Positions 1,483-63,935 are shown, counted from the first letter of the stretch. The stretch is DNA of 64,000 nucleotides from Chloroflexota bacterium (GCA_016191425.1 JACPOR010000036.1:3002-67001), one strand, 5' to 3'. A program made the numbers and translations. Notes: a model not told the origin generated them from the sequence alone.

Positions 1483-1546
1483 CTGGCGATACCGCAGGCT
1501 GGCAATACCGCCAGCTGGCGATACCGCATCCTGGCGATACCGCATC
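1483..1546. repeat. Tandem repeat, 16-bp unit CTGGCGATACCGCAKS x4
   Basis: Direct reading of the acs/mscS intergenic gap. Confidence 0.9.
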
Positions 1547-1568
1547 CTAGCGCGCCCGGCTGCTCCGG

Positions 1569-2507
1569 TCAGTCATCCGGCGCGAGGTCATCCTCCGTGG
1601 GGCCGAGTGTGGCCTGTGGCGCCACCGGTGCCGTCACGTCGTGGGTGAGCACGACTCGCTGCGGTCGGGGGATCTCGATGTCGTGCGCCTTGAAGGCCGC
1701 GAGGAGGCGCTTGCGCAGTTCGCCGGGGGCCGCCCACCGCTCGGGAGCTCGCACCGTACCGAAGATCTTGAGGACGACGCCGTACTCGCCCAGCGCTTCG
1801 ACCCGCTCGACGCGCGGGGCCTCGAGCACGCGACGCTTCCAGGCCGGGTCCGAGGCCATGTCGCGGCCGACATCATCGACGACCTTGATGGCCTTCTCGA
1901 TGTCCGTTGCGTACGCGACGCTGACATCGAGGTTCAGGCGGGCCCAGACCCTGGTCATGTTGCTGGCCACCTGGATCTCGCCGTTCGGCACCGTATGGAC
2001 GATTCCGTCCACGTCGCGAAGGGTGGTCCGCCGCAGGCTGAAGTCCTCGACGGTCCCGGTGACGCCAGCCACTCGCACGACGTCGCCGCGGCTGTATTGG
2101 TTCTCGATCAGGATGAGGGCACCGTTCAGGTAGTCGCGGACGAGGTTCTGGGCGCCGAATCCGACGGCAACGCCGACGATTCCGAGCCCCGCCACGGCCG
2201 GCCCGATTTCGAGGCCGACCTTCTGGAGGATCATCAGCGTCGCGATCATCAGCAGGAAGAATCGAATCACCCGGCCGCCGAGGTCATCGAGGGTGTCCAT
2301 CCGTTTCTTCAGCTCGACGGCCGAGAGTTCCTGAGCCGTGCCCTCGGTGACTTCGCGATCCATGAGGGCCTTCACGATGCTGTGGACGAACGGCCTCGAC
2401 CCGCGAACGAGGACGATCGCGACGACCAGTATCACCAGGACGGGCAGGATGTCCTTGCGCAGGATCGGCAAGATTGCGTCCCACGGCGGCTTCGAGAAGT
2501 CCGGCAT
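1569..2507 (-). CDS. Small-conductance mechanosensitive channel (MscS family)
   Basis: 312-aa ORF with N-terminal TM helices and the conserved core [29 protein letters not shown]...[15 protein letters not shown] typical of MscS. Confidence 0.9.
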
Positions 2508-2535
2508 GCCTTGAGCGTAGCCGATGACGGGCGGT

Positions 2536-2585
2536 CCGCGATACCGTCTGCCGCGATACCGTCTCCCGCGATACCGTCTGCCGCT
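2536..2585. repeat. Tandem repeat, 15-bp unit CCGCGATACCGTCTS x3.3
   Basis: Direct reading. It shares the core GCGATACCG with the array at 1483-1546 on the other side of the MscS gene. Confidence 0.9.
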
Positions 2586-2655
2586 TTACCACCAGGTCGC
2601 CCGGCAGAACGTCGGCTCCGCGCGGCTCCGGGCCGGTGGGAAACAGGGCCGGTGC

Positions 2656-2748
2656 GGGCCGGGCGGCTCGGACCCGATGCTGCGGCCGTGGTTGGGCCGG
2701 GCGGCTCGGACCCGATGCTGCGGCCGTGGCTGGGGGCGGCTCGGCGCG
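2656..2748. repeat. Tandem repeat, 38-bp unit x2.4
   Basis: GGGCCGGGCGGCTCGGACCCGATGCTGCGGCCGTGGYT is repeated head-to-tail. Confidence 0.85.
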
Positions 2749-2760
2749 GAACCCGCATTT

Positions 2761-3773: not shown

Positions 3774-4006
3774 CGGGTCGGCGGGGTCGGCGGGGTCGGC
3801 GGGACCGCGGGGTCGGGAAACGCTGCAATCGGCCGCAAGGCTCCCCAGTCGGGCACCGATCCGGCAGCTCTCCTCTAGAACGGCGGGGTCGGCGGGATCT
3901 GGGCGGTCGGCGGGACCGCGGGGTCGGCGGGATCTGGGATCTTGGCTGATCCGCGGGGTCGGCGGGATCTGGGATCTTGGCGGATCCGCGGGGTCGGCGG
4001 GACCGG
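3774..4006. repeat. Complex tandem/imperfect repeats built on GGGGTCGGCGG(GA) and GATCTGGGATCTTGGCKGATCCGC units
   Basis: Direct reading; several head-to-tail units. Confidence 0.8.
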
Positions 4007-4123: not shown

Positions 4124-4270
4124 AGCGCCACCGAGCAGCTGGGGCGGCGCCACCGAAGACGAGCGGCGCCAAGCGGAACGCCGAGCCGCAGACCCGCGAC
4201 GGCGGCGCTGACCTGCGCACTCGCAGCCCGGACTGGCGCGGCGACCGCATGCAAGCGGCTCGAGCTCGGC

Positions 4271-4476
4271 GACACTCCTGACAGCGTTGACTGGATCGTC
4301 ATGCGAGCGCAGGCGCCCGACCGGTCACTCGTCGGCGGCTCCAGCGGCGGACTCGAAGCCGAGGTCGCCCGGTGACACTCCGGACCGCGTTCGACTGGTT
4401 CGTCATGCGAGCGCAGGCGCCCGCCCGGTCACTCGTCGGCGGCTCCAACGGCCGACCCGAAGCCGAGTGCCCGGTC
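4271..4476. repeat. 103-bp tandem duplication x2 (~88% identical); the second copy contains the 3' end and stop of the aminotransferase gene
   Basis: GACACTCC..GTCATGCGAGCGCAGGCGCCCG.CCGGTCACTCGTCGGCGGCTCC... occurs at 4271 and 4374. Confidence 0.9.
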
Positions 4477-7399: not shown

Positions 7400-7451
7400 A
7401 AGCTGGCGCCGGGCGGGCCCGACTCGCGGCGAGTTCTGGAGCCCCGATCGC

Positions 7452-7538
7452 GGCCAGCCCGTTGACGGCCAGCCCGTTGACGGCCAGCCCGTTCACGGCC
7501 AGCCCGTTCACGGCCAGCCCGTTCACGGCCAGCCTGAC
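7452..7538. repeat. Tandem repeat, 15-bp unit GGCCAGCCCGTTSAC x5.8
   Basis: Direct reading in the convergent intergenic gap. Confidence 0.95.
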
Positions 7539-7682: not shown

Positions 7683-10601
7683 TCACAGCTCCGGCGCAGC
7701 GTCACCGCAAGAGAATAGGCCGAGCTGCTCACCGTGCTGGCCGGCCGCCGGGTCGAGCCCGAGGTGGGGCTCGAGCCCGGCCAGGTCGAACGGTTCGTGG
7801 GCGAGCCATGCCTGCAGCTGGGGCCAGAGGATCAAGTGCCAGTTGTCCGCCTCGATCGCAGCCTGGAGGATCGGCGAGGCGTCGAGCTTGTGGCGTACCA
7901 GCGCGGCTCGCTCCGGTGCGATCACGAGGAAGCGGACGAGCCCGTCGTCTGCCGGGATCCGATTGTGTCGCCGGAGAAGCACATCGCCGAGCATCGCGGT
8001 CCATTCGACCTCGAAGAGGAAGGCCGTCCTGTTGCGTACGTACCAGATACAGTCGACCTCCTGGAGATCCTCGGCCGAGGCGCGGGCGATGGCCGGCAGC
8101 CACGCGGTCTGCTCGCGTCGTTCGAGGAGGTCGCCGAGCGTGCCGGTCCCGAACCGGCGCGCCTGCTCACGCTGGCCGATCCAGACGTTCATGCCCAGGC
8201 GGTGGCCGCCGTCCGCGAGGCGGGCCAGGAGCTCCGTATGCTCCGTGGTTCGACGACGCACATCCTCACCCGTCACGAGTCGATCCGGTGTCGAGTCCCG
8301 GCTTCGGTAGCTTTCGAGGCAGGCCCGGACGAGAGCCTCATCGGGCAGTTCAGGGCCGCTGAACAGGGCCGTGATGCGGGCGAGGAACGCGTCCTGGTCG
8401 AGCGGCCCGGCCGTCGAGAGCAGACTGTAGACGGCCCACTCGACCCGGTCTGCGAGGGGCACGGCCGCGCCTTCGCGATCTGCTCTCGACTCCAGCCACC
8501 AGCGACCGGGCGCGATCTCGCGAAGACGCTGCTGAGAGGGCCTGGAGAGTTCGTCGCGGATCAGCGTGAGGACGCGCTCGATTGGGTCGGTATCGGAGCG
8601 CGGCAGCGGCTGCTGTCCGGCCCGCGGCGGCGGCTGCTGTCCGGACCCCGGCGGCGATGCCGACCCTGACCGCGGGGGCGGCTCCTGTCCGGCCCGCGGG
8701 GGCGGCTCCTGTCCGGCCCGCGGCGGCGACGCCGCCCCGGGCGGCTCACTGCTATCGGACGTGGCCACGAGCCGATGCAGATGCCCGGCGTGGTCGAGCG
8801 CGATCAGGATCTCGCCGAGCAGGTGCTCGTATCGAGCCGGCTCGCCACGCTCGCGCAACACGCCCACGGCAACGTCCGTGATCGTCCGCGCCGCCTCCGA
8901 CATCGAGAACGGGCGGGCATCGATCCGTTCCGGGGCGGAGAACATCCCCGGCCCCGGGACCATCACCGGGTCACCAGACCCGCCCGGCACCGGATCCAGG
9001 GGCCGCCCGGAACGAGTCCGGGGTCCCGGCGGCAGGGTGGCGCCTGGTGGGATGAGCTCCACGACGCCGCCGTGGTCATCGTCCGGCTCGGCCAGCCGGG
9101 CATCCGAGAGCCGGTACCCGGCCCCCACGCCGCCCAGGACCGCCGCAACGAGCCCCTCGGGACCGCCACCCTCGAGCAGGAGCACAACCCGGCCTTCCCG
9201 GGCCATGAGAGGGACGGCACGTTCCAGCGACGCGCGGAGGGCCGCCGATTGCCACGACCACGGGGCCCGTATGGCCGATCCGCCGAGAGCCTCGAGAGGC
9301 AGCAGCAGGGCGGCCTCACGCCCGAGGGCCCAGCACGTGCCGTGGTACGCGGCCGCAAGGCGCTCCTGGTTGAACCGGAGCGGCGGCTGCCCGAGGATGA
9401 GGCGGATACGCGGCGGCCGCTCGGCACGGTGCGGTTCGCGGAAGCCGTCGCCGTCACGTGCCAGCGACGAGAGCGCATCCGGGGTCGCGACCTGCAGCAA
9501 TACCGTGGCACTGCCTTCGACAAGGCTCCGCAGGTCCGTGCCCAGCCGGGCGTCGAGCGGACCGATGGCGCCGCTCTCGATTCGCTGGACGAAGGCGCGG
9601 ACGACCCGGAAGCCCTCTTCGAAGGCCAGCCACGGATTGCGCTCGCGGACTTTTTCCGGGATCGGCGAGCGGATCGCGCCTCCGGCGATGCGAATGCCCG
9701 GCACGCGCCCCGGACCCGTCCCCAGCCGGCTGGCCGGCAGGACCGCGTGGAGGAGCGCCAGGCGGAGCGCCGATTCCACGGGCGCCGCTCGCAGATCGCC
9801 TTCGATTCGTTCGAGGATCGCCGCCAGGCCGACGAGCTGCCGATCGCTGTGGAGATCGAGGATCGCATCCGCCAGGCCCTCGGAGCCTGCCGGGGCCGGG
9901 AAGCGGTCGCGCAGGCTGGCGCGCAGGGCGGACCCGCCGACGTCGGCGATCGCACGCTCGCGATCAGATTCGTCGGGGGCAGCCCCGCGCTGCTCGAGTC
10001 CACCGCGCTGGTCGCGGCAGACCACGCACCGGTAGGCCTTGTGCGACAGGACGGGTCTCGGTGCCTCGTCGTCCCCGGCCATCGGCTCCGAATGGGTCGT
10101 GCCATCGCGGGGGCGTGCCGCCGCCGCGCCACCCTCCCAGGTGAACTCATCGGCGATGAGGGATCGGTCGCAGGTCGCGCAGCGGGTGGCGAACATGGCT
10201 CCGATCGCGAGCTTGAGGCTCGAGTCGCCGCGGGGCGAAGCGCTGAGGGTGGAGAATGCCGCGTCCAGGTGACGAAGGTCGGGAGGACGCAGCACGACCT
10301 CCGCCAGGAGCCGGGTCAGGGGGCTGCTCTCCAGGGTCACGGCCCGCCGTTGCCGATCGATGGCCGCCCGGGCGACCCAGGCACCCCGACCGTGCAGATC
10401 GGCGACGATGTCGCCCGGGGCAGTCGCCGCCTCGAGGCGGGCGACCACGCTGCTCGGCGACGGTGGGGGTGCGAGCCGTTCGAATGCCGGCATGGTGAAT
10501 CCCGGCTCGTCCCGTGAGAGAAGCACTCGACCCACCATCGATCGATTGTCGCAGAGAGCACCTGGGCGTACGCTGGCCAGGTTCCGCATGGACGCGTCCA
10601 C
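7683..10601 (-). CDS. Large orphan protein: degenerate Zn-ribbon methyltransferase-like N-terminal region, low-complexity linker and PD-(D/E)xK-like C-terminal domain
   Basis: 972-aa ORF; the true start may be at 10493 or 10538. Motif-I-like DIVADLHGRGAWVARAA. CxxC...CxxC (CATCD / CVVCRD). QPPLRFNQ-x11-W lies where DPPYYDN-x11-W is expected. PRAGQEPPP repeats. The C-terminus has EVDCIWYVRNRTAFLFEVEWT. Confidence 0.65.
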   Translation of the reverse strand: MDASMRNLASVRPGALCDNRSMVGRVLLSRDEPGFTMPAFERLAPPPSPSSVVARLEAATAPGDIVADLHGRGAWVARAAIDRQRRAVTLESSPLTRLLAEVVLRPPDLRHLDAAFSTLSASPRGDSSLKLAIGAMFATRCATCDRSLIADEFTWEGGAAAARPRDGTTHSEPMAGDDEAPRPVLSHKAYRCVVCRDQRGGLEQRGAAPDESDRERAIADVGGSALRASLRDRFPAPAGSEGLADAILDLHSDRQLVGLAAILERIEGDLRAAPVESALRLALLHAVLPASRLGTGPGRVPGIRIAGGAIRSPIPEKVRERNPWLAFEEGFRVVRAFVQRIESGAIGPLDARLGTDLRSLVEGSATVLLQVATPDALSSLARDGDGFREPHRAERPPRIRLILGQPPLRFNQERLAAAYHGTCWALGREAALLLPLEALGGSAIRAPWSWQSAALRASLERAVPLMAREGRVVLLLEGGGPEGLVAAVLGGVGAGYRLSDARLAEPDDDHGGVVELIPPGATLPPGPRTRSGRPLDPVPGGSGDPVMVPGPGMFSAPERIDARPFSMSEAARTITDVAVGVLRERGEPARYEHLLGEILIALDHAGHLHRLVATSDSSEPPGAASPPRAGQEPPPRAGQEPPPRSGSASPPGSGQQPPPRAGQQPLPRSDTDPIERVLTLIRDELSRPSQQRLREIAPGRWWLESRADREGAAVPLADRVEWAVYSLLSTAGPLDQDAFLARITALFSGPELPDEALVRACLESYRSRDSTPDRLVTGEDVRRRTTEHTELLARLADGGHRLGMNVWIGQREQARRFGTGTLGDLLERREQTAWLPAIARASAEDLQEVDCIWYVRNRTAFLFEVEWTAMLGDVLLRRHNRIPADDGLVRFLVIAPERAALVRHKLDASPILQAAIEADNWHLILWPQLQAWLAHEPFDLAGLEPHLGLDPAAGQHGEQLGLFSCGDAAPEL

Positions 10602-10850
10602 GACCTGCTCGACCGCCTGGCCCGAGACTCGTCACCGACGCGCGCAGCACGCGAACAGCCGCCGAGGCCTGAGGGTGATCCCCGCCGACGTTGTTCAGGG
10701 GATCTCCAGGGGCTGATCAAGATGGTTCATCAGATCGGGCGCATTCACGCTCGGCCGAGCAGCGGACTGCACGGCGATCCAGCAGGGCCACGCTCGTCTG
10801 CGTCGATAGTGATGAACCACATCGATCACGACCGGCTGTCGCTGGATCAC

Positions 10851-10951
10851 GGCGGCGGCGCTCGATCAGGGCGGCGGCGCTCGATCAGGGCGGCCGTCGC
10901 GCATTCCATCGGCGGCGGCGCTCGATCAGGGCGGCCGTCGCGCATTCCATC
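10851..10951. repeat. Composite tandem repeat (20-bp GGCGGCGGCGCTCGATCAGG plus 21-bp GCGGCCGTCGCGCATTCCATC units)
   Basis: Direct reading. Confidence 0.85.
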
Positions 10952-11019
10952 GGCGTTCGCCGGCAGTGTCTGCGATGTCTACCGCCAGCTCCGCCCTGGA
11001 ACCGCGGCGCCGGCCCCAG

Positions 11020-11074
11020 TCAGCTGCCTACACCTCACTCAGCTGACTACCCTCGGTCAGCTGCCTACCCCTCG
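11020..11074. repeat. Tandem repeat, 18-19-bp unit TCAGCTGMCTACMCCTCR x3; the last unit contains the stop codon of the TPR gene
   Basis: Direct reading; the stop (CTA on the plus strand) is at 11065-11067. Confidence 0.85.
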
Positions 11075-12411: not shown

Positions 12412-13266
12412 TCAGCTGCGGAGCCGGATGCTCCAGGCCACGACCAGCACCCCGAGGACCGCGAGAAGGACCGTTTCCCAGATCCACCGGGCGTCGCGGC
12501 GACGTGACGGTTCCCTGGCATGCACGGCGTCCCAGAGAAAGAAGACGAGGACGAGGAGGGCCGGACCGAGCAGGCGAGGGATCTCCATCGCCCTGAGCGC
12601 GGCAGCCGCGATCGCCACGAGCGCAGCGCTCGTGAGCGCGAACCAGGCGACGTCCCGGAGGTTCGACGACCGAAGCGCCGCCGCCCGATAGCCCAGCAGG
12701 AACGCCATGAAGGCGTCCGCGACGGCGAGCGCGGCGAGTTGCGCACCGGTCGGCGCCCCGAAGACGGAGCTTCCATCCGGAAACCCGGCGGGGACCAGCG
12801 CGGCCATGCCCGAGAAGCCCAGCAGGCCCACGATCAGCGCCTGCCCCACCACGGCCGTCCGGTCGGCGCTGGAAGGTCCGGAGGTGCTCGCGAGCAGGCG
12901 AGCCTCCGTTCCGATGACGCGGAGGAGCAGCCACGCCCCGATCATGATCGCCGGGACCAGCAGGATTCCTGCCGGTACCAGGCGGATGCTGCCGAAGATC
13001 GAGATGACGGTCGCGGCGGGCACCATGAGCGACTCCACGGGCACGCCGGGCCCTTCCGTCGCCGGCACGCCGTCGCCCAGCAGCTGGAGCGCGCCAAAGG
13101 CCACAGCAAACAGGAGGCAGGCCCCCACGATCCAGGCCGCCGGGCCGTCGACGAACCGGGAGAGCAGGACCACGACCATCGAGGCGGCCACGAGATCGCG
13201 CGATCCGCTGAGGGTGCTCATCGAATCGATGGTACGCGAGGGTTGACGCCCGGTCTCGATCGTCAT
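12412..13266 (-). CDS. Polytopic membrane protein of unknown function
   Basis: 284 aa with multiple hydrophobic helices. Its start overlaps the polX stop (ATGA), suggesting co-translation. Confidence 0.7.
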   Translation of the reverse strand: MTIETGRQPSRTIDSMSTLSGSRDLVAASMVVVLLSRFVDGPAAWIVGACLLFAVAFGALQLLGDGVPATEGPGVPVESLMVPAATVISIFGSIRLVPAGILLVPAIMIGAWLLLRVIGTEARLLASTSGPSSADRTAVVGQALIVGLLGFSGMAALVPAGFPDGSSVFGAPTGAQLAALAVADAFMAFLLGYRAAALRSSNLRDVAWFALTSAALVAIAAAALRAMEIPRLLGPALLVLVFFLWDAVHAREPSRRRDARWIWETVLLAVLGVLVVAWSIRLRS

Positions 13267-15143
13267 GACCGTACGACGCGGTCGTTCCGCCGCACGTAGT
13301 CAAGCAGGTCGGCCCGCGATCGCGTATTCATGACCGTGGCCGGCTCGACCCAGGCCCGACGCGCCTGGGAGACACCCCACGCGAGGTGATCGAATTCCTC
13401 GGTCCGATGCGCATCGGAGTCGACCGCCAGGAAGCATCCGATCGACATCGCGTGGCGGGCTCGCTCGACGGAGAGATCCAGGCGATGCGGTGAGCCGTTC
13501 ATCTCGAGCAGCGTGCCGGTCCGGGCAGCCTCGGCGTAGACGGCATCCCAGTCAAGATCGAGGTCATCGCGCTCGCCGAGCTTCCGGCCCGACGGGTGCC
13601 CGATGACATCGACATGCGGATTGCGAATCGCGCCGAGGACCCGCGCGGTCAGCTCTGCGCGGGACTGACGCCGCCCGACATGGAGAGACGCCACGACGAC
13701 GTCGAAGCGGCTGAGCAGGGTGTCGTCGTAGTCGAGTCGCCCGTCGGCGCGAATCTCCAGCTCACAGCCGTGCAGGAGACGGAAGCCCTCGGGCGACGTC
13801 TCCGCCGGCGCGGTACCCGCGTCCTCCTCCCGGGCGAAGCGTCGATTGAGCCCGGCGATCACCCGCGCCTGCCGGGCGACGCGCTCGGGCGTCAGGCCCC
13901 GGGCGATCGCCAGCGACATCGAATGGTCGGTCAGCACCTGGTACGCGTGGCCCCGGCGCCGGGCGGCCTCGGCCATGACCTCGATGGGCTGACTCCCGTC
14001 CGACCAGTCCGAGTGGGAATGCAGGTCGCCCCGCAGATCCCCGAGCTCGAGGAGTGTCGGCAGGGTCCCCGCGAGCGCGGCCTCGATCTCGCCGGTGTCC
14101 TCACGCAGCTCCGGGGCGATGAATGGCAGATCGAGGAAGGCGTAGAGCGCGGCCTCGGTCGGGAAGGTCCTGAGCTCCGCATCCGCCCCGGCCAGCACCG
14201 ATCCGCCGTCCGCGAGGCGCGCGAACCCCTTCTCGGAGAGGCTCCAGCCGCGGTCCCGGGCGCGTTCGCGCAAACGGACGTTGTGCGCCTTGGAGCCCGT
14301 GAAATGCACGAGGTAGGAACCGGCTGCGCCGGGGGCCATGCGCATCAGGTCGATCTGCGGACCGCCCGTCGCGCGGATGGCCGCTTTCTCGGGGCCCTGG
14401 TTGATCACGGCCTCGATCGCCGGCAGCGTCGTGAATCGTTCGATCACCGGTCCTGCGTCGGTGATCTCCACGAGCAGGTCGAGGTCGCCGATCGTCTCGC
14501 GGCGCCGGCGATACGAGCCTGCGGCCACGACCTGGGCGACACCCTCGACGGGCGCGAGGACCGCGATCACCCGGTCCACCACCGCGCGGGCATCGTGGAG
14601 GAGCAGGCGGTGATCCTTTGACCGGATACCCTCAATGCCCTCGAGGATCGCGGCCTCGGTGCGGGAGGACAGGCCGCGCAGGCCGCGTAGTCGGCCAGAT
14701 TGCGCGGCGGCCCGGAGCCCCTCGAGGTCCGCGATACCGAGCGTGGTCCAGAGCTGTCGCACCGTCTTCGGCCCGAGCCCCGGCACACCAAGAAGATCCA
14801 GCAGCGTCGCCGGGAACTCTGCCACGAGGTGCTCGTGATAGCGGAGGCGCCCGGTGCGCGCCAGTTCGGCCACCTTGTCGGCGATTGCCCGCCCGACACC
14901 CGGCAGGTCCGGCGGATGGCCATCGAGGTAGGCCTGGGCAACACCGACCGGCGCCCGCCCGATCGTGTCCGCGGCGCGGTGGTAGGCGACGGTTTTGAAT
15001 ACGAGTTCGCCCTTGATCTCGAGGAGGTCGCCGATCTCGTGGAAGATGCGGGCGAGCTCGGCGTTGGACGGCAGCTCCGCGTTGGACGGCAGCTCCGCGC
15101 CCGGAGGCAGCGCCGGAGATTCGGATTCGTCGGTGGCGGGCAC
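13263..15143 (-). CDS. polX: DNA polymerase X family protein with C-terminal PHP phosphoesterase domain
   Basis: HhH/PolX N-terminus FHEIGDLLEIKGE..FKTVAYHRAA, nucleotidyltransferase GSYRRRRETIGDLDLLV and PHP DLHSHSDWSDG...DSDAH. The N-terminus carries the ELPSNA x2 repeat. Confidence 0.9.
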   Translation of the reverse strand: MPATDESESPALPPGAELPSNAELPSNAELARIFHEIGDLLEIKGELVFKTVAYHRAADTIGRAPVGVAQAYLDGHPPDLPGVGRAIADKVAELARTGRLRYHEHLVAEFPATLLDLLGVPGLGPKTVRQLWTTLGIADLEGLRAAAQSGRLRGLRGLSSRTEAAILEGIEGIRSKDHRLLLHDARAVVDRVIAVLAPVEGVAQVVAAGSYRRRRETIGDLDLLVEITDAGPVIERFTTLPAIEAVINQGPEKAAIRATGGPQIDLMRMAPGAAGSYLVHFTGSKAHNVRLRERARDRGWSLSEKGFARLADGGSVLAGADAELRTFPTEAALYAFLDLPFIAPELREDTGEIEAALAGTLPTLLELGDLRGDLHSHSDWSDGSQPIEVMAEAARRRGHAYQVLTDHSMSLAIARGLTPERVARQARVIAGLNRRFAREEDAGTAPAETSPEGFRLLHGCELEIRADGRLDYDDTLLSRFDVVVASLHVGRRQSRAELTARVLGAIRNPHVDVIGHPSGRKLGERDDLDLDWDAVYAEAARTGTLLEMNGSPHRLDLSVERARHAMSIGCFLAVDSDAHRTEEFDHLAWGVSQARRAWVEPATVMNTRSRADLLDYVRRNDRVVRS

Positions 15144-16904: not shown

Positions 16905-17019
16905 GGGAAGGAAGCATGAGCCCACGGCCCTGCATCCGTCCAGTGGGGCCACGTGGTACTTCCGTACCGGGCCCGACCGGTACCTGACCGGTACCTGACC
17001 GGTATCTGATCGGCGCCAA

Positions 17020-23958: not shown

Positions 23959-23987
23959 CCGCGAAATCCGTACGGGCGGGTTGAGGC

Positions 23988-48295: not shown

Positions 48296-48928
48296 CTAGG
48301 CCGGCCGGCCGCGCATGGACGACGTCGATGGGCGGTGGGAGGCACGGGCCGCACGCGTGGCATGGGCCGCGCGGGCGGCATGGGCCGCGCGGGCGGCACG
48401 GGCCATCGGCGAGCCGCTCGGGCGGGATCGACGCCACACCATCCATGCGGCGCCGGCGAGGCTCAATGCGGATGCCGCTACCGCGCCCCCGAAAAGGAGC
48501 GGTCGCGGGCCCGATCCGGCCGGCGCCGTGTCGCCGAGGTCGTCGAGCGGGTCGACACCGAGGCCCCGGATCGGCTGGGGCATCGTCGTCCAGCCCGAGG
48601 CGCCTTCGCCCCCCGCTGCCACGGGCAGGCGCATCGAGGCGGCAGCCTCGGCGAGACGCACGGCGAGCCGCTCCTCGAAACGGAATGAGGGATGGAACCG
48701 GGGCAGGTCGCGGGTGAGGCGTTCGGACGCCAGGCGAACACCTTCGTCGGGGAACTCCGGGTCGAGGCCGCGGCGCACTCCGGACAGGAGCCACGGTCGC
48801 CGCGGCGGTTCTGCGGCGGGCCCGTCAGCCGGGACGATCCGCCGGTCGGCGGCGGCGAGGAGCGAATCGAGGTATCGATCGGTGACGAGCGCATCGACCT
48901 CGACGACGTCCCGTCCCAAGAGCGTCAC
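48296..48928 (-). CDS. Putative single-pass anti-sigma factor (RsdA-like arrangement)
   Basis: Its GTG start overlaps the sigma stop (GTGA). N-terminus VEVDALVTDRYLDSLLAAADRR. One TM, PLLFGGAVAASALSLAGAAWMVW. The C-terminal ARAARAAHAARAAH tail is repeat-derived. Confidence 0.55.
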   Translation of the reverse strand: MTLLGRDVVEVDALVTDRYLDSLLAAADRRIVPADGPAAEPPRRPWLLSGVRRGLDPEFPDEGVRLASERLTRDLPRFHPSFRFEERLAVRLAEAAASMRLPVAAGGEGASGWTTMPQPIRGLGVDPLDDLGDTAPAGSGPRPLLFGGAVAASALSLAGAAWMVWRRSRPSGSPMARAARAAHAARAAHATRAARASHRPSTSSMRGRPA

Positions 48929-51764: not shown

Positions 51765-51830
51765 CGGGCGGGCATTCTACCCGACCGATCGCGGCGCTCC
51801 CCGCGGCAACCTGGTGGCGCGTGAGCGATC

Positions 51831-51930
51831 GCGGGCGCGTGCGGCAACGTGCCGGCGCGCGCGCCAGCCTGCCGGCGCGTGCGGCATCGCGCCGGCGCGT
51901 GCGGCATCGCGCCGGCGCGTGCGGCAACGG
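51831..51930. repeat. Tandem repeat, 20-bp unit GCCGGCGCGTGCGGCATCGC x5 (outer units degenerate)
   Basis: Direct reading in the divergent lysC/GNAT gap. Confidence 0.85.
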
Positions 51931-52941: not shown

Positions 52942-53727
52942 GTGTGCTTCGACATCGATAGCCGCCCACCCATCATCCCGATGTTGGGCGGCGCCCTCGA
53001 CGCCGGGCCGATGACCCTCACGTCGGCCGATGGCACCGCCTTCAGTGCCTACGCTTCGCGCGCCGCGAACCCGACCGGCGCCGGAGTCCTGATCCTGCCC
53101 GACAGACGCGGACTCCATGCGTACTACGAGGAGCTGGCCCTCCGCTTCGCTGAACACGGGCTCGATTCGGTCGCGATCGACTACTTCGGGCGGACGGCCG
53201 GGATCGGCAACCGGGGTGCCGACTTCGAGTTCGGGCCGCATGTCGGCCGGACCCGCTGGGCGACGCTGGCCGCCGACATCGCGGCAGGAGCCGCGGCGCT
53301 GCGGACCCTGCGCATGGCGGACGAGGCAGCATCGCGCGTGTTCGTCACCGGATTCTGCATGGGCGGCCGGCTCACGTTCCTCGCCGGCACCCTGGGGCTC
53401 GACCTGGCCGGCCTCATCGGGTTCTACGGCTGGCCCACCGGGAATGCCGGCAATGGCTCCCCGGCTCCGGCCGATGTGGCGGCGGATATCTCCGCACCCG
53501 TCCTGGCGATCTACGGCGGGGCGGACGAGGGCATCACGAAGGAGGCTCGCGAGACATTCGACCATGCTCTTGACGCCGCCGGGGTCGAGCGACGAACGGT
53601 CACCTACCCTGGCGCGCCGCACTCGTTCTTCGATCGCAAGGCCAGCCAGTACGTCGAGGCGTCGGCGGGCGCCTGGGCCGAGGTCCTTGCCTTCATCGGC
53701 GGCCACGGGGCGGGCGTCACCGCCTGA
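52942..53727 (+). CDS. Dienelactone hydrolase family protein
   Basis: GTG 52942 follows AGGAGG. GAGVLILPDRRGL..., nucleophile elbow GFCMGG, and C-terminal GAPHSF. Confidence 0.85.
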   Translation: MCFDIDSRPPIIPMLGGALDAGPMTLTSADGTAFSAYASRAANPTGAGVLILPDRRGLHAYYEELALRFAEHGLDSVAIDYFGRTAGIGNRGADFEFGPHVGRTRWATLAADIAAGAAALRTLRMADEAASRVFVTGFCMGGRLTFLAGTLGLDLAGLIGFYGWPTGNAGNGSPAPADVAADISAPVLAIYGGADEGITKEARETFDHALDAAGVERRTVTYPGAPHSFFDRKASQYVEASAGAWAEVLAFIGGHGAGVTA

Positions 53728-53929: not shown

Positions 53930-53995
53930 GGCGTCAACGCCTGGCACACGCCGCCCAAGGCGATCATCTGGGCGACACTTGGCCGATGCCGTCCC

Positions 53996-54115
53996 CGGCG
54001 CAACGCTCAGGCGCGGCCCGGCGCAACGCTCAGGCGCGGCCCGGCGCAACGCTCAGGCGCGGCCCGGCGCAACGCTCAGGCGCGGCCCGGCGCAACGCCC
54101 AGGCGCGGCCCGCCG
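53996..54115. repeat. Tandem repeat, 23-bp unit CGGCGCAACGCTCAGGCGCGGCC x5.2
   Basis: Period measured directly: CAACGC at 54001, 54024, 54047, 54070 and 54093. Confidence 0.95.
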
Positions 54116-54314
54116 CACCCTCCCCGGAGCGATGCGTATCGCGGTCATACGAAGCAGGATCGTGTCCTCCTGACGTGCCGGCCAGCGCTCAAGGTGCATA
54201 CCAGCATCATTGCCATCGCCATCGCGCCGACAGACCTCGGTGCCAGACAATCCTGCTGTCGTCACCCGCCAACACGCGTCCTTCGTATGACGTCGACGCG
54301 CATCGCTCGAAAAA

Positions 54315-54400
54315 GGGGCCGTCGGGCTGGCGGGGCCGTCGGGCTGGCGGGGCCGTCGGGCTGGCGGGGCCTCGCGCTGGCGGGGCCTCGCGCTGGCGGG
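54315..54400. repeat. Tandem repeats, 17-bp GGGGCCGTCGGGCTGGC x3 then 16-bp GGGGCCTCGCGCTGGC x2
   Basis: Direct reading; the array ends 6 nt before the thrB stop. Confidence 0.95.
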
Positions 54401-54406
54401 GGCCGG

Positions 54407-57562: not shown

Positions 57563-57797
57563 GGGGGGATTCACGGGCGTCTTGAGTGGGACGGAGGTCT
57601 CATCCCGCCCATGGTACCGGGCGGCCGGTCTCGGCTCTGCGACCTCGCGGATCCGGGGCCTCGCGGTTACGCGACCTCTCCGTTGCGTGGCCCGACCACC
57701 CGGGGCGGTCCGACCACCCGCGGCGGCTGGGACGAAGCCAGGGGCCACGAGCGCGACGGCCGACCGGCTCCATGACGTCGGCTACACTCGGCCGACG

Positions 57798-58817: not shown

Positions 58818-60107
58818 TTGAGCTTTGAGCTGACGCCGCGCGAGCGTCGCTGGATGAACATCGTGCTCATCCTGGCGGCGATTGCCCTGGCCTTCGTGGT
58901 CCTCGGGTTCCTGGCCAACCTCCTCGCCGCCTTCGGCGACATCATCCTCGTCTTCTTCCTTGCCTGGCTCCTCGCGTTCATCCTCACCCCGATCATCACG
59001 CGGGTTGCCTCGATATCGCACATGAACCGGGCCGGGGCCGTCGTCGTCGTGTACGTCGTGCTGTTCGGTGGCCTCGTCTTCCTCGTCATCGCGGTCGCCG
59101 GTGCCATCGCGGGTTCCATCACCGACTTCATCGCCAGCGTGCCAACCCTGCGGAACGACCTGCCGACGATCGTCGCGCCGTGGCAGGAGCGGCTCAACGG
59201 GCTCGGGCTGAAGGATGTGAACCTGACCGCCCAGGCGGGGGTCTTCCTCGACAACCTCAATCGCTACGCCGCCCAGCTGGCCGGTCCTCTCCAGCAGGTC
59301 GCCGTCGCCAGCCTCAGCGCCATCGCCAACCTGCTGCTGATCCTGATCCTGTCGCTGTACATGGTCGCGGATCGCGATCGCCTCCTGGCTTCGGCCTTCC
59401 GCCTGGCGCCGCGGCAGTACGCGCAGGAGGCGCGCCTGCTCGAGCAGAGCGTGGCCCGATCCTTCGGCGGATTCCTGCGAGGCCAGGCGATCATGGGCGT
59501 CATCTATACCGCTGTCGCCCTGATCGCGAGCGTGGTCTTCGGCCTCGATTACGCGGCTGCGACGGCCTCGGCGGCCGGCCTCCTGATGGCGATCCACTTC
59601 TTCGGACCGTTCCTCGCCTGGGCGCCGCCGGTCCTCGTGGCGCTCGCGACGAAGCCCGACGCGATGCTCGGCGTCCTCATCGTCATGGCGGCTGGCTGGT
59701 TGGCGGTCATGAACGTGCTGCAGCCGCGCCTGATGGCCCAGGCGCTCCGGATTCACCCCATCGTCGTCCTGGGATCCGTGCTCATCGGCGGCAAGATCGC
59801 CGGGATCAGCGGCGCGATCTTCGGCATCCCGATTGCCGCGGTCCTGTCCGCGTTCTTCTTCCACTGGTTGGGCCAGAGCGTCGACTCCGGGCCGGTTGCC
59901 ACCCGTGCCGCGCTGCGCCTTGGGCGTCGCGAGGGTCGGTCGGTCAGGGTTCCGCGCGAGCCCGACCCGGCGACCGACACCGATGTGGAGTCCGGGGCGG
60001 ATGTCCTTGCCGATGAGCCGGACGTCCTTGCCGATGAGGCGGATGTCCTCGCCGACCATCCGGCCCCCGATCCGGCCCCGGGTCCGGCCCCCGGTCCGGG
60101 CGTCTAA
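58818..60107 (+). CDS. AI-2E family transporter (PerM/UPF0118)
   Basis: TTG start after GGGAGG. Polytopic. The C-terminal tail has the 24-bp in-frame repeats DVLADEPDVLADEADVLAD. Confidence 0.8.
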   Translation: MSFELTPRERRWMNIVLILAAIALAFVVLGFLANLLAAFGDIILVFFLAWLLAFILTPIITRVASISHMNRAGAVVVVYVVLFGGLVFLVIAVAGAIAGSITDFIASVPTLRNDLPTIVAPWQERLNGLGLKDVNLTAQAGVFLDNLNRYAAQLAGPLQQVAVASLSAIANLLLILILSLYMVADRDRLLASAFRLAPRQYAQEARLLEQSVARSFGGFLRGQAIMGVIYTAVALIASVVFGLDYAAATASAAGLLMAIHFFGPFLAWAPPVLVALATKPDAMLGVLIVMAAGWLAVMNVLQPRLMAQALRIHPIVVLGSVLIGGKIAGISGAIFGIPIAAVLSAFFFHWLGQSVDSGPVATRAALRLGRREGRSVRVPREPDPATDTDVESGADVLADEPDVLADEADVLADHPAPDPAPGPAPGPGV

Positions 60108-60256: not shown

Positions 60257-60400
60257 GGCCGGGCGGATCCGGCCTGGTGCAATGCCAGGCCGGCCTGGCG
60301 GCAATGCCTGGCCGGCCTGTCGGCAATGTGCCTGTCCGACCGGGCGGATCCGGCCTGGCGGGCCTGCCTGGCCGGCCTGGCGGGCCCGCCGGGCGACCTG
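60257..60400. repeat. Imperfect tandem repeats built on GGGCGGATCCGGCCTGG and GCAATGCCWGGCCGGCCTG
   Basis: Direct reading. A related GGGCGG(GG)ATCCGGGCC array follows the partial element copy at 62315-62360. Confidence 0.75.
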
Positions 60401-60424: not shown

Positions 60425-62067
60425 CTACCTGATCACGTCATCGGCACGATCCTCCTGGAGCGCCGCGTCACCAGCGACGACGAGAGCCGCCAGGTAGGCC
60501 CGCCTGCCCTCGGTCGAGAGCCGATCGGGGCCACCTGAATCGGCGACCAGTGATCGCGCGCTGGCCAGTCCGCGAGCGGCTGTTCGGGCGCCCGCGGCTG
60601 TCTCGTGGTCGAGCCAGAGCTCGACTTCGGCCTGAAGCGCGTCGAGTTCAACCGAGATTGCACCTCTGACGAAGCGGCCTCGCGGGCCCGCCCGAGATGC
60701 ATATGCGCAGTAGACGGCCTTCCGAGGCGATACGCGGCTCGGGCCGCCTCGAGCTCGGCAACCTGACGATCCCGTGGATCCATCGAGTTCTCGCCGACCG
60801 CCGCCCAGCGTCGCTCCGCAAGCTCCTGCTCGCCGAGCACGGCGGCAAGTTCCCCGAGGCTTCGGTCGAGGCGAACCTGGTCAGGGTCGCCGAGGTCGAG
60901 GCCGTCGCTGATCGAACCAAGCAGACGGAGGTCGTCGCTGCCGCGAAGGCGCCTTCGAGGAGACGACAGCAGCCGCATCGCGATCGCGGTGCTCGGCGAT
61001 CCCGCTGCCAGGTGGCGATCGAGGGATTCGCGAAGCATCGACAGGTCGTCACCCGCGGCAGCTTCGATGCACCTTGCGAGCCGGGCGTGAAGGCGCCGTT
61101 TCGTCGGCACCGGAAGCGCCACAGTCGCGGCTTCGCGGATCAAGTCGTGGGCGACGAGCGTTGCTCCCGCGACGCCAAGAGCGAGGCCTCGAGATACGAG
61201 CTCGAGCGACGCCTGGACAACTCGACCTGCTTCCCAGCCCAGGATTCCCGCCGTTTCGTCGTCGTCGAAGGGCCGAGCACCAATCGCGAGAACCGCCAAG
61301 AGGGCTCCTGCGTCCGAGCTGAGATCCCGAAGCCGCTCGATGGTCACGCTCGATGGTTCGGCACTCGCCCGGCCGCGGGCGAGTGTCTCTATCCAGAAGG
61401 GCGAGCCGCCGGCTCGGCGCCAAAGGTCGCTTGCAACCGCGCCATCGAGCTCCTGGTCGATCGATTGGGCGAGTCGGCGACCGTCGTCGAGAGAGAGCGG
61501 ACCGAGATCGATGATCGCCCGGCGCTCGGCTGGCACATCCGTCTCGATGCCGCCGCGAATTGCCGCCGCAGCGGGCGATGGCCGAGAGAAGGCGACGAGC
61601 GCCGTGGACTGACGTGCCGACGCGGCCGCGTGGAGAACCTATTGGATGAGGGCGAGCGATCGCTCATCCACCCACTGGAGATCATCGATTGCAATGAGGA
61701 CCGGACCCTGGGATGCAAGAGCCCGATGGGCCGCTTCGAAGATGCGGAGTGGGTCACGATCTTCCGTTGCGTGTCCCCGAAACACGAGCCGATCGAGGAT
61801 CGCTCCATCACCTGGCACTTTTGCCAGGTGGCGGAGCAGTGCTCCCGCGGCGGCTAGCGGCACGGACTGCATGGGCTCGAAACCGACCACCCGGATACTG
61901 ATGGCCAGCGCTTCCCTGGCGATCAGCTCACGCAGCAGGCGGCTCTTTCCACTGCCAGGCTCGCCCACGACCAACGCGGCAGTCGGCACTCGCAGGGAGC
62001 TTGCACCCCGAACGATCGAGATGAGAACTCCGAGTTCACTCTGCCGACCGACGAAGGGGACGCTCAT
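60425..62067 (-). pseudogene. STAND/AAA+ ATPase of the LuxR-type large-regulator family, inactivated by an in-frame TAG and a probable 3' frameshift; no HTH domain
   Basis: Walker A VVGEPGSGKS and Walker B LIAIDDLQWVD. Track ORFs 61639..62514 and 60433..61536 are in the same frame, separated only by the TAG at 61639-61641. The tail after ~60690 reads better in another frame, which stops at 60425. GC3 is lower than in neighbouring genes. Confidence 0.7.
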
Positions 62068-62117
62068 CGCCGCCGAAGCGTAATCCTCCCCGGCAGCGGC
62101 GGCCACGCTGCCTACCT

Positions 62118-62263
62118 TTACCGGCGCCGCTTCCTCGCGTCCGACAGGATCTCCCGCGCGGCGTTCTGGCCGGGACCGCCGGTGATCCCGCCCCCCGGTG
62201 GGCGCCGGAGCCGCACAGGTAGAGCCCTTCGAGCCCACCGATCCGGTAACGTCCGTGGCCGAG
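62118..62263 (-). pseudogene. Detached 3' remnant of the phytoene-desaturase-family oxidoreductase, with a 1-nt deletion
   Basis: Hand translation gives ...GLEGLYLCGSGAH then, after a frameshift in the CC/GGGGGG run, PGGGITGGPGQNAAREILSDARKRRR*. This is the typical C-terminal FAD-binding end of this family. Confidence 0.7.
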
Positions 62264-62270
62264 GAGCGTT

Positions 62271-62314
62271 CACGCTCCCTCGTCGGGAATCGCCAACTCA
62301 CGGTTGAAGGACCG
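62271..62314 (+). mobile_element. Partial (3' ~45 bp) copy of the MITE-like element
   Basis: CACGCTCCCTCGTCGGGAATCGCCAACTCACGGTTGAAGG matches the 3' part of the 60119 copy. Confidence 0.6.
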
Positions 62315-62388
62315 GGCGGGGGGATCCGGGCCGGGCGGGGGGATCCGGGCCTGGCGGGCGTCCAGCCCTGTTCCAGCCATGCTCCAGC

Positions 62389-62526
62389 CCTGGGCCAACC
62401 CCGGCTCAACTGGCAGTTGGCACTCGGCAATGAACGAGCACGTCCGATGTGCAGGATCGACATGAACCCGTCGATTGGGCAGGGCTGGCACGCTCCTTCA
62501 TCGAGAATCGCCAACTCATGGTTGAC
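62389..62526 (+). mobile_element. MITE-like hairpin element, full copy (138 bp), inserted into the oxidoreductase gene
   Basis: Collinear with 60119-60256. The last ~40 codons of track ORF 62406..63935 are translated from this element. Confidence 0.65.
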
Positions 62527-63935
62527 GGGCCAGGCGAGCCTGCCTGGCGGCCGGGCGGGTGGCCCGCCCAGTCGCCGTCGCGGAGCGTGTGCGGGGCGTA
62601 TTGGGCGATGACGCTCATGACGTGGGTACCCGTTCGAGCGCCCTCGACGAGCGAGGGGTCCACCAGGGACGGAATGGTGGCCTCGACGATCGGCGCGTCC
62701 GAGGCGCGCCCATATTTCGATGCGTCGAAGGCCCGCTCCATGGCATCGATCCCGGGTGGAACGACGATCCGTCCGCGGAGCAGCTGATCGGCGTCCCCGC
62801 CGGCCGCGGGAAAGACGGGCAGCCCCTTCAGCGCGAGGTTGACCTTGGCGACCACCCCCGGGGTCCGGATGTTGCCGGCTCGCCAGCCGAGCGAGGGCCC
62901 GAGCGCCACGGGATCGACGAGATCGACGAGCGTCCGTTTCGGGTCAGCACCGGACACGATCGCCCGCGCGGTGATCACCTCGCCCGAGGACAGGACGATG
63001 CCGGTCGCGCGTCCATCCTTCGAAGTGATGGCCGTCACCTCGGCCCCGGTCCGGATCTCGGCGCCGGCCGCCCGGGCCCCGGACGCGAGCGCTACCGACA
63101 GCGCACCGGGGCCGCCGCGGGCGAAGACGGTCTCGCCGGCCGCGCCGCCATCATTGCCCGCGGAGTCCATGAGCAGGACCGAGGCCGTGCCGGCCGACCA
63201 CGGCCCGACCGAGCCGTATCGAACCCCGCGCCACGCGATCGCCGCCCGTACGGCATCTGTCTCGAAGGCCTCGGCCACGAGATCCGCGACTGCCATCGGC
63301 AGGATGCGCAGGATCGTGCGTGCGTCGTGCTTGCCGAGCCGGCGGAACGCTCTGCCGAGCTTCAGGCCGGTGAGCGCGTCACCGATCCCGGGTGCATCGA
63401 TGTCCGGCGGCGCCGAGCGTCCGAGCTCATCGAGGAACCTGGCCATCGAGCGGACCAGGCGATCGAACCCGACGTACGCGTCGGCGTCCGCAGCAGATCT
63501 GGCGCGAAGGCCCGCGGCCGTCTTTGCCGCATCACCCCAGAAGACGACAGCCGACCCGTCCGGCGAGGGAGCGAGAGCTCGCACGTCCGGGGCCATGAGC
63601 GCCAGCCCGTGACGCTTGAGATCCAGATCGCGCTGAACCGACGGACGCAGCCGGCCCACCGTGTGCGCCAGCGCCGGAACGCGGATCCCCGGGCCCAGTT
63701 CCGCGGTGTCCGCGGCGCCGCCGAGACGATCGCGACGCTCCAGGACCAGTGTCCGTAGGCCGCCTTTCGCGAGGTAGGCGGCGGTGACGAGCGCGTTGTG
63801 TCCGCCCCCGATGATCACGGCGTCCCACGGAGCCACGGCATGCCTGATCGCGGGAGGGGCCGCCGGCGCGGGCACCGGGGCCGGATGTGTGATCGGCGCG
63901 GGCACCGGGGCCGGATGTGTGATCGGCGCGGCCAT
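62406..63935 (-). pseudogene. Phytoene-desaturase-family (CrtI-like) FAD oxidoreductase whose 3' end is replaced by the repeat element
   Basis: DAVIIGGGHNALVTAAYLAKGGLRTLVLERRDRLGG dinucleotide fold. Family-like sequence stops at ...YAPHTLRDGDW (~62568), after which the ORF reads into the element. The true start may be GTG 63836, because 63837-63930 is a 33-bp x2 repeat. Confidence 0.65.

Follow-up and report, generated by a model that had tools for sequence, protein, structure and literature searches.

Why should a stretch of chromosome filled with ordinary genes hold a different short tandem repeat in most of its intergenic gaps? The stretch in question, 64,000 nucleotides (nt) of a Chloroflexota bacterium (GCA_016191425.1 JACPOR010000036.1:3002-67001; hereafter the window), had been described in an earlier note, made from the sequence alone, as carrying arrays of this kind in almost every gap. 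An anatomy in which nearly every array has its own unit is known from Borgs, extrachromosomal elements of Methanoperedens archaea (Schoelmerich et al. 2023, PMC9879509). We confirmed that the dense, private tandem repeats of the window are real, and the reading that we consider best, with a probability of roughly 0.7, is a lineage-variable high rate of slippage-type local tandem duplication that is filtered by selection.

Tandem arrays are dense and private to their loci

Arrays were called with Tandem Repeats Finder (TRF), overlapping rows were merged at a score of at least 50, and arrays scoring at least 100 were treated as a strong class. TRF returned 123 rows in the window at a score of at least 30; at 50 or above there were 45 merged arrays covering 3,466 bp (5.4% of the window), where the earlier note had counted more than 25, and 18 of the 45 belonged to the strong class. 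The window is 69.3% G+C, yet Markov simulations of order 1, 3 and 5 produced only 1.4-2.5 arrays, with a maximum of 5. Under identical TRF settings, 50-kb stretches of five high-GC replicons (Ralstonia megaplasmid, Rhodococcus pRHL1, Thermus pTT27, Deinococcus MP1 and Cupriavidus pHG1) held 0.2-1.2 arrays per 10 kb, against 7.0 in the window, and 0-0.2 strong arrays per 10 kb, with the Thermus CRISPR arrays set aside, against 2.8. This excess over both the simulations and the controls indicates that array density is no by-product of base composition, and chance or high-GC low complexity was ruled out as the source of the arrays.

The individual examples that had been cited were present: 16 bp at 1469-1545, 15 bp at 2536 and 7443, 38 bp at 2656, 104 bp at 4267, 36 bp at 15159, 12/25 bp at 36031, 20 bp at 51830, 23 bp at 53994 and 17/16 bp at 54315. 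The last of them is also an array, but its unit is 30 bp at 63864-63931 rather than 33 bp at 63837. TRF and direct reading of the sequence indicated that copies lie head to tail, contiguous and spacer-free, in 1.9-7 copies of units spanning 9-104 bp, with an array base content of 78% G+C and 10% A. Identity between copies ranged from 74 to 100% across arrays, which indicates arrays of differing age, and unit variants were arranged in blocks (AABBB); together, these features suggest stepwise duplication over a long period rather than one burst. Only 3 arrays were perfect (at least 3 units and at least 50 nt), amounting to 0.34% of the window, and admitting imperfect copies raised this to 20 arrays and 3.3% (5.4% for the broader TRF set).

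In an all-against-all comparison, just 7 of 990 array pairs shared a short match, the substantial ones occurring only between neighbours in the same gap, and no unit had further copies elsewhere within the 64 kb. The units thus mostly differ, and the claim that they do not form one dispersed family held.

Arrays lie in intergenic DNA, beside stop codons and in frame within genes

We curated a gene map from third-codon-position G+C (GC3) periodicity, Pfam boundaries and orthologues, by which 83% of the window is coding. On this map, arrays covered 21.7% of intergenic and 2.2% of coding bases, the enrichment that the earlier note had put forward as a check, and numbered 29 per 10 kb of intergenic DNA compared to 2.6 per 10 kb of coding DNA (binomial P = 1e-14). 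At least one array was present in 20 of the 28 gaps of 100 nt or more, so that "most gaps" is accurate and "almost every gap" was an overstatement. The arrays had also been held to be the main reason that open reading frame (ORF) starts are over-extended in this sequence; the cause is mainly the 69% GC instead, which leaves few stop codons.

Fourteen arrays were coding and 31 intergenic. The period was divisible by 3 in 11 of the 14 coding arrays but in only 8 of the 31 intergenic ones (Fisher P = 0.0013), and the three coding exceptions were weak, being borderline two-copy matches or straddling a stop codon. The same was seen in sequences of two relatives, L010 and L020 (12/12 coding and 6/13 intergenic, P = 0.005; P = 4e-6 when pooled with the window), for which coding and intergenic arrays were assigned by hand as automatic assignment was confounded by cross-hits between GGDEF paralogues. 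Every coding array fell outside Pfam domains, in linkers or termini: the PolX N-terminus ahead of the first helix-hairpin-helix (HHH) domain, the linker of the first GAF-GGDEF protein (GGDEF1), the N-terminal region of the second (GGDEF2), the length-variable linker of a 972-aa protein, the N-terminus and linker of a protein like the biotin carboxyl carrier protein (BCCP-like), and the C-terminal tails of a sigma factor, an anti-sigma factor and the AI-2E transporter. The repeat peptides reported earlier from five proteins (AELPSN, PRAGQEPPP, DVLADEP, ARAAHA and PDRDAPRADREAAR) were all recovered, together with PVVGTAAGRN in five copies in a GGDEF protein, GSGT in six copies in the BCCP-like protein, and APGP in the transporter tail.

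Thirty-two arrays could be assigned to gaps and were compared to random placement inside the same gaps. Fourteen lay within 25 nt of a stop codon or straddled one, where 7.6 were expected (P = 0.002), and 3 lay within 25 nt of a start, where 6.9 were expected, although start positions are less certain than stops. Two of the post-stop arrays still run into a T-run, which gives them the look of an amplified intrinsic-terminator stem. A folding z-score below -2 was found for 32% of intergenic arrays and 7% of non-array intergenic 70-mers, and 10 of the 19 G-quadruplex (G4) motifs of the window fell within arrays; these associations are suggestive only, because repetition itself inflates folding z-scores and four or more copies with a G3 run make a G4 automatically. 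Hairpins and G4 motifs, which concern about a third and a fifth of arrays respectively, may be a contributing factor and not the rule. Separately, the G-rich strand was the plus strand in 15 of the 19 G4 motifs, including all 10 inside arrays, and cumulative GC skew climbs across the window, yet about three quarters of genes are on the minus strand.

The arrays called by TRF are as follows (window coordinates, strand, description; a dot for strand denotes intergenic or unassigned).

1469..1545,., 16-bp unit x4.8; intergenic, 23 nt past the mscS stop, upstream of acs
2536..2584,., 15-bp unit x3.3; divergent gap between mscS and an HTH_3 gene
2656..2734,., 38-bp unit x2.1, 97% match; same mscS / HTH_3 divergent gap
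3775..3816,., 9/17-bp units with a G4 motif; 7 nt past the HTH_3 stop, related to the array at 3881..4005
3881..4005,., 35-bp unit x3.4; convergent gap
4267..4475,., 104-bp duplication x2.0; straddles the aminotransferase stop, unit takes in the gene's last 47 nt
7443..7534,., 15-bp unit x6.1, two unit variants in blocks; convergent gap between the DAO gene and the 972-aa gene
8599..8738, -, 24/72-bp coding array, PRAGQEPPP; length-variable linker of the 972-aa protein
10822..10955,., 41-bp unit x2.1 (100% match) with nested 19-bp array; between the TPR gene stop and the 972-aa gene start
11017..11074,., 18-bp unit x2.9; unit holds the TAG stop of the TPR gene, so that the stop is present 3 times
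12950..12994, -, 21-bp unit x2.2, weak coding array; 269-aa hypothetical gene
15055..15115, -, 18-bp unit x2.5, coding, AELPSN; PolX N-terminus, single copy in L001
15159..15292,., 36-bp unit x3.8; fills the GGDEF1-polX gap, unit includes the GGDEF1 TGA, orthologous gap in L001 33 nt
16241..16392, -, 30-bp unit x5.2, coding, PVVGTAAGRN; GGDEF1 linker
16975..17013,., 11-bp unit x3.5; 6 nt past the GGDEF2 stop, multiplied 5' arm of a hairpin conserved in relatives
19097..19276, -, 18/30-bp coding arrays; GGDEF2 N-terminal region
19463..19598,., 6/17/18-bp G-rich arrays with G4 motifs; divergent gap upstream of GGDEF2
23927..23963,., 16-bp unit x2.2, weak; straddles the fic stop
24892..24964,., 38-bp duplication x1.9; intergenic
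31329..31366,., 20-bp duplication x1.9, weak; intergenic
35058..35173,., 22-bp unit x3.0 and 19-bp unit x2.9; fill the 139-nt gap from the extracytoplasmic function (ECF) sigma stop to the anti-sigma start
35256..35295, -, 15-bp unit x2.7, coding; C-terminal tail of the ECF sigma factor, past region 4
36031..36107,., 12/25-bp units; divergent gap between the sigma gene and HTH_3b
36127..36167,., 17-bp unit x2.5; same sigma gene / HTH_3b divergent gap
37114..37158,., 13-bp unit x3.4 with a G4 motif; 10 nt past the fabG stop, then a T-run
37974..38060,., 14/44-bp units; upstream of fabG
39550..39584,., 17-bp unit x2.1; 20 nt past the PIN3 stop
39622..39670,., 17-bp unit x2.9; 10 nt past the fabH stop, related to its same-gap neighbour at 39550..39584
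45847..45919, -, 12-bp unit x6.1, coding, GSGT; BCCP-like linker
46152..46257, -, 21/42-bp coding array, PDRDAPRADREAAR; BCCP-like N-terminus
48337..48404, -, 18-bp unit x3.8, coding, ARAAHA; C-terminal tail of the putative anti-sigma factor
51817..51929,., 20/40-bp units x5; divergent gap between lysC and a GNAT gene
52994..53032,., 19-bp duplication x1.9, weak; 5' end of the DLH gene
53994..54117,., 23-bp unit x5.4, 98% match; upstream of a 64-aa ORF, unit resembles the GTTGACGCC motif, single-copy in relatives
54315..54401,., 17/16-bp units x5.2; 5 nt past the thrB stop, then T5 on the sense strand
57639..57678,., 16-bp unit x2.5; divergent gap between hom and trpS/tyrS
57692..57726,., 18-bp duplication x1.9; same hom / trpS/tyrS divergent gap
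59998..60055, +, 21-bp unit x2.8, coding, DVLADEP; C-terminal tail of the AI-2E transporter
60058..60099, +, 12-bp unit x3.5, coding, APGP; extreme C-terminus of the AI-2E transporter
60269..60328,., 22-bp unit x2.8, hairpin-forming; intergenic
60350..60394,., 22-bp unit x2.0; related to its neighbour at 60269..60328
62312..62358,., 19-bp unit x2.5 with a G4 motif; convergent gap
62361..62392,., 11-bp unit x2.9; 13 nt past the amine-oxidase stop
63428..63466,., 17-bp unit x2.4, borderline (score 50); within the amine-oxidase gene, probably at chance level
63864..63931,., 30-bp unit x2.3, perfect duplication; just upstream of the likely amine-oxidase start

Orthologous gaps in relatives hold single-copy precursors of the units

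PolX placed the window in the class Limnocylindria of the Chloroflexota, with a best identity of 78-82%; the source is an uncultured soil bacterium, of a clade described as common in soil and groundwater. Gene order was shared over about 20 kb with assemblies of several relatives, and the housekeeping operons (fab, acc, thr, lysC, trpS/tyrS) kept synteny with Limnocylindria chromosomes, among them a chromosome record of 2.4 Mb and a contig of 2.57 Mb. Orthologous gaps in array-poor relatives were compact and contained a single-copy precursor of the window unit, with such counterparts in compact gaps of L001, L007, L168 and L169.

One such gap lies upstream of polX. In L001 it consists of 33 nt: a TGA, a GGCCCC-ttc-GGGGC hairpin, the conserved ACCATCGGG and the GTG. 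In the window the same gap is filled by 3.8 copies of a 36-bp unit that carries the end of the upstream GGDEF gene with its TGA, and the conserved ACCATCGGG-GTG is retained only behind the last copy; in L020 the array is a different one, with a unit that includes CCATCGGG. Within PolX itself, the N-terminal hexapeptide at the AELPSN site is present once in L001 and 2.5 times in the window, and in L020 the neighbouring hexapeptide LPADAG has been amplified instead, at least 10 times. Past GGDEF2, L001, L007 and L020 share a conserved perfect hairpin, GGTACTGGGT-cg-ACCCAGTAC, whose 5' arm is triplicated in the window to give the 11-bp array. In the window the TAG stop of the TPR gene is likewise triplicated with the 15 nt that follow it, and the gap between this gene and the 972-aa gene contains a perfect 41-bp duplication followed by a nested 19-bp duplication of its tail; this gap measures 526 nt, whereas L001 and L006 have about 70-80 nt there and L020 about 30 nt.

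The gap after thrB is 495 nt with two arrays in the window, 90 nt with a 21-bp array of 3.1 copies in L166, and 100 nt with an 18-bp array of 3.9 copies in L172; it is array-free at 45-59 nt in L168 and L169, and in L171 the genes overlap. A GTTGACGCC-like motif lies within the units of L166, L172 and, more loosely, the 23-bp unit of the window, and occurs as a single copy ahead of the 64-aa ORF in L168 and L169. In two protein linkers, those of GGDEF1 and the 972-aa protein, the window and L010 carried repeats unrelated to each other; the other relatives compared had none.

The single-copy precursors in compact orthologous gaps, and the units that include a neighbouring stop codon, show that the arrays are local tandem multiplications, recurring at the same tolerant or fragile sites; by this comparison they turn over faster than these species diverge. 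The earlier proposal, that individual loci are prone to tandem duplication and that this is concentrated at gene termini and in non-coding DNA, is borne out by the intergenic enrichment and by these precursors.

The 64-aa ORF after thrB is itself a conserved feature. This small hydrophobic ORF follows thrB in all relatives (53717-53911, minus strand, in the window, its upstream region extending to 54117), and in L166, L168, L169 and L172 it is preceded by a conserved GTTGACGCC...GACACT motif. That segment has been tandemly amplified in at least two lineages and probably in a third, with units of 18, 21 and 23 bp. A canonical -35/-10 promoter was ruled out for the motif, as the spacing is only about 6-8 nt.

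Array load varies between and within related genomes

Pooled over 1.04 Mb, relatives carried 2.0 arrays per 10 kb, or 0.32 at a score of at least 100. A few loci matched the window, with different units: L010, from a long-read assembly with a 1.4-Mb contig (6.9 arrays per 10 kb and, at a score of at least 100, 4.1), and L020 (5.5 and 2.7, respectively). The claim that the density exceeds that of ordinary high-GC DNA was therefore correct with respect to the controls, but the density is not unique, since some relatives' loci match it. The long-read assembly also speaks against the arrays being artefacts, as arrays with different units are found there too.

In the PolX tree the window was sister to L020. 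Within single genomes, the two loci could differ strongly: the L007 genome had 1.2 arrays per 10 kb at polX compared to 8.0 at thrB, and the L020 genome 5.5 compared to 2.9, while the L006 genome was low at both. A repeat-poor polX and a repeat-rich thrB in the L007 genome weaken any clean split of the PolX tree into genomes with and without the trait, and suggest that array load is quantitative and dependent on lineage and region, rather than a discrete trait that was gained repeatedly.

No same-species sequence was returned by a PolX metagenome scan (best identity 81-83%) or a ThrB protein search (next best 88%), and L167, the only relative's sequence to come from an independent assembly, did not differ from L166. 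For the sister genome, the deposited assembly (L020 9901-10000; L166) has a 100-N scaffold gap within the PolX N-terminal array and 10 N elsewhere. This gap indicates that arrays exceeding the read length are probably under-represented in short-read assemblies of the clade. L168 (ENA ERZ25039539 contig_30171) has fragmented gene calls (hom 203 aa, thrC 148 aa, trpS/tyrS 204 aa), probably from uncorrected long-read indel errors, which makes it a poor reference for gene boundaries.

Probable local duplication filtered by selection, and competing explanations

Six points were shown by the analysis: local derivation of the units, private units, the frame filter, enrichment at stop codons, turnover between relatives, and recurrence in independent assemblies. 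Under the reading that we favor, an unusually active mutational process specific to the genome is at work, in which short local stretches (9-104 bp) would be duplicated head to tail and then re-duplicated through slipped-strand or template-switch events in replication or repair, often seeded at structure-prone spots such as GC-rich hairpins just past stop codons. Selection would then filter the products: non-coding DNA would tolerate any period, genes would keep only in-frame units in flexible linkers or termini, and sites just upstream of start codons would be avoided. Arrays would be continually born, diverging and decaying while intergenic regions swell, and this turnover would leave sister genomes with different arrays at the same tolerant sites. 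Slippage itself would supply the mechanism, its rate presumably raised by some property of the replication or repair machinery, and an unusual repair or replication background, one of the two kinds of cause that the earlier note had offered, is the most likely candidate for the cause of the arrays.

Several points weigh against this reading. Its mechanism is one that we infer, and the collections searched gave no same-species sequence in which copy-number polymorphism, the hallmark of active slippage, would show. The enrichment at stop codons and the recurrence in the same gaps across lineages could also mean function or mere tolerance. The association with structure is no more than suggestive, inflated as folding scores and G4 motifs are by repetition itself, and the difference between loci in the L007 genome (1.2 and 8.0 per 10 kb) makes calling a genome high or low from a single locus noisy.

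A stronger version is that some Limnocylindria lineages are in a heritable "tandem-duplication mutator" state that makes Borg-like private repeats, in which a specific change in replication or repair, such as one in single-strand-exonuclease or flap processing or in a polymerase prone to slippage, would keep creating repeats. We regard this version as tentative, with the odds somewhat against it. Mutants in flap endonucleases and single-strand exonucleases (yeast rad27; Escherichia coli polA 5'-nuclease, recJ/exoI/exoVII/exoX) produce tandem duplications of about 5-100 bp bounded by short direct repeats; the 9-104 bp size class of the window is comparable, by analogy only.

It is unlikely that a dedicated repeat-making activity of the sort put forward for Borgs, such as a slippage-prone or specialised polymerase or another enzyme, seeds and extends repeats at sites such as gene ends, in place of a passive increase in slippage. 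The anatomy does parallel that of Borg repeats (private units, divisible by 3 in genes only, arrays starting in ORF ends), arrays are enriched beside stop codons, and the same sites have been amplified with different units across lineages (PolX N-terminus, GGDEF1 linker, the motif downstream of thrB); but the recurrent sites are also insertion-tolerant ones, and imperfect arrays of mixed age fit a steady background better than recent bursts. No candidate enzyme was found, and PolX, which occurs in array-rich and array-poor relatives alike, was ruled out as the cause.

Still less probable is that the arrays are selected functional elements, whether terminators or insulators, multiplied promoter or operator motifs, regulatory RNAs or gene spacers. 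Many arrays abut stop codons, two of them followed by T-runs, about a third have a better fold than shuffled versions, relatives have arrays in the same gaps, and those before the 64-aa ORF multiply the conserved GTTGACGCC motif in at least two and probably three lineages. The units, however, are unrelated between loci, which makes a common binding protein or other trans-factor unlikely; the orthologous gaps of sister genomes have other units or none, and several relatives manage without arrays, their genes overlapping or lying 30-90 nt apart. Housekeeping genes flank the arrays, and coding arrays remain in frame and hence provide no frameshift switches. The functions suggested earlier (spacing, protein binding and phase variation) thus found no support in private units, in-frame coding arrays and the lack of conservation between sister genomes.

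Two further explanations are effectively excluded. An artefact of assembly or sequencing, from looping of the assembly graph or concatenation of strain variants, could draw on the L020 scaffold gap as a sign that such arrays trouble assemblers, but it would not respect reading frames, and is at odds with copies that differ by point substitutions (74-98% identity), with arrays of 40-200 bp (2-7 copies of 9-40-bp units) that mostly fall under the read length, and with the recurrence of the phenomenon in other samples, assembled independently from short or from long reads. A dispersed mobile or palindromic family occurring in tandem (REP/BIME-, MITE- or MIRU-like) would suit the intergenic location and the hairpin-forming units, but is just as improbable given that no unit is shared beyond same-gap neighbours or has extra copies within the window, that units visibly derive from the adjacent gene end or gap, and that none matches Rfam.

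Gene content and further features of the window

Pfam scans indicated ordinary housekeeping and signalling genes across the window: acs, mscS, an aminotransferase, a DAO oxidoreductase, PolX, the two GAF-GGDEF proteins, an MgtE-like protein and Nramp; two ECF sigma/anti-sigma pairs, fabG/H/F/Z, accABCD with the BCCP-like protein, and birA; and lysC, hom-thrC-thrB, a class-I (W/Y) tRNA synthetase and the AI-2E transporter. Scans for tRNA genes and Rfam families matched none in the window.

The segment at 22900-34250 is a variable island that is missing from all syntenic relatives; in L019, fabG lies only about 2.5 kb past nramp. It encodes Fic, a PIN/HTH_17 pair and four proteins of 462-846 aa with a single Big_5 domain as their only Pfam match, has a lower GC (0.65-0.68), and holds only 3 weak arrays of the 45 (binomial P = 0.03). 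This scarcity would fit arrays accruing with residence time in the genome.

On the minus strand at 7683-10538 lies the 972-aa gene, whose true start is the ATG at 10538 (MVGRVLLSR...) rather than that of the longest ORF. Its protein of about 950 aa is conserved across Limnocylindria, always beside the TPR protein and near polX; no Pfam domain was matched. Near its N-terminus it carries Cys-rich motifs, and its internal linker is hypervariable. Ahead of this gene and of polX, -10-like hexamers about 6-8 nt before the starts are conserved in the window and relatives (CACAAT and TACCAT, respectively), which suggests that the transcripts may be leaderless.

15144-15160 and ~10539-10560, minus strand, window: -10-like hexamers
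9985-10002, L001: -10-like hexamers

Between fabG and fabH (37919-39680), the place expected for fabD is taken by two PIN-domain (VapC-like) genes, upstream of which small ORFs lie on the opposite strand, and Pfam matched no acyltransferase there. The window encodes two biotinyl-domain proteins, a clear one of 167 aa in the fab cluster (40880-41383) and the repeat-laden BCCP-like protein of 258 aa between accA and accC (45502-46278); the biotinyl match of the latter is too weak to pass the Pfam cut-off, and orthologues of this protein vary in length from 118 to 236 aa.

Implications

Pervasive locus-private repeats have so far been treated as a signature oddity of Borgs. The window suggests that they are a general outcome of a particular mutational regime plus selection, and not a Borg-specific adaptation. 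If the mutator version is true, close relatives that are repeat-rich and repeat-poor with conserved gene order form a natural comparative system for the genetic cause, and such syntenic pairs are the place to seek the responsible repair or replication factor; repeats would then lengthen the DNA between genes, add copies of promoter and terminator motifs, and give housekeeping proteins new disordered peptide segments. The arrays bear more broadly on the origin of new disordered protein segments and of multiplied regulatory motifs. For annotation of these assemblies, they shape where genes start and end, how long intergenic regions are and the "low-complexity" tails of proteins. Assembly quality is affected too, as the scaffold gap within an array of one relative shows.

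Comparison with known repeat systems

Several known systems could be set aside. Known RNA families were rejected by the Rfam and tRNA scans; CRISPR arrays were rejected on contiguous copies, the absence of repeat-spacer architecture and the absence of an Rfam match; and phase-variable contingency loci, with units of 1-8 nt, were rejected on units of 9-104 bp, coding arrays that are in frame, and host genes that serve housekeeping or signalling. Membership in REP/BIME, MITE or MIRU families fails, as no unit recurs outside its own gap within the window. MIRU form tandem arrays between operon genes and sometimes overlap stop or start codons. The window resembles them in having tandem arrays between genes, but MIRU are a dispersed family of related 40-100-bp units at many loci, whereas the units here are unrelated between loci.

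Bacterial variable-number tandem repeats (VNTRs) or minisatellites, the loci of multiple-locus VNTR analysis (MLVA), are closer. They are likewise head-to-tail repeats of about 10-100 bp, intergenic or in-frame genic, with block-wise unit variants that suggest stepwise duplication, and the window shares their contiguous head-to-tail copies and units drawn from pre-existing local sequence. Typical genomes, however, hold few, whereas 64 kb here contain 45 arrays, which take up a fifth of the intergenic DNA. By the criteria of a survey of prokaryote satellites, only 18 of 119 bacterial species exceeded 4 satellites per Mb (PMC6749651). In the literature searched, we found no paper tying Limnocylindria to tandem repeats.

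The Borg repeats offer the nearest likeness. In both cases, head-to-tail repeats with locus-unique units pervade intergenic and genic DNA. Genic Borg units are all divisible by 3, compared to 14-38% of intergenic ones (PMC9879509), and in the window the figures are 11 of 14 and 26%. Genic arrays in both give repeat peptides in disordered, terminal or linker regions; arrays may begin inside an ORF end, they differ between close relatives, and their load is genome-specific. The differences are equally clear. Borg repeats are nucleotide-perfect, whereas copies in the window are 74-100% identical and only 3 arrays fit the perfect criterion. Borg units are A-rich in linear elements of about 33% GC, in contrast to arrays of 78% G+C and 10% A here, and within-population copy variation has been shown for Borgs. 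The repeats make up, on average, 0.62% of a Borg genome and at most 0.01% of the host (PMC9879509); by the perfect criterion the window reaches 0.34%, and its imperfect-copy load of 3.3-5.4% is not directly comparable with the 0.62%. Finally, Borg repeats reside on giant archaeal extrachromosomal elements and are virtually absent from the host chromosome, whereas the window is a housekeeping region of a bacterial chromosome. By analogy, it would represent a bacterial-chromosome case of the Borg-like private-repeat anatomy.

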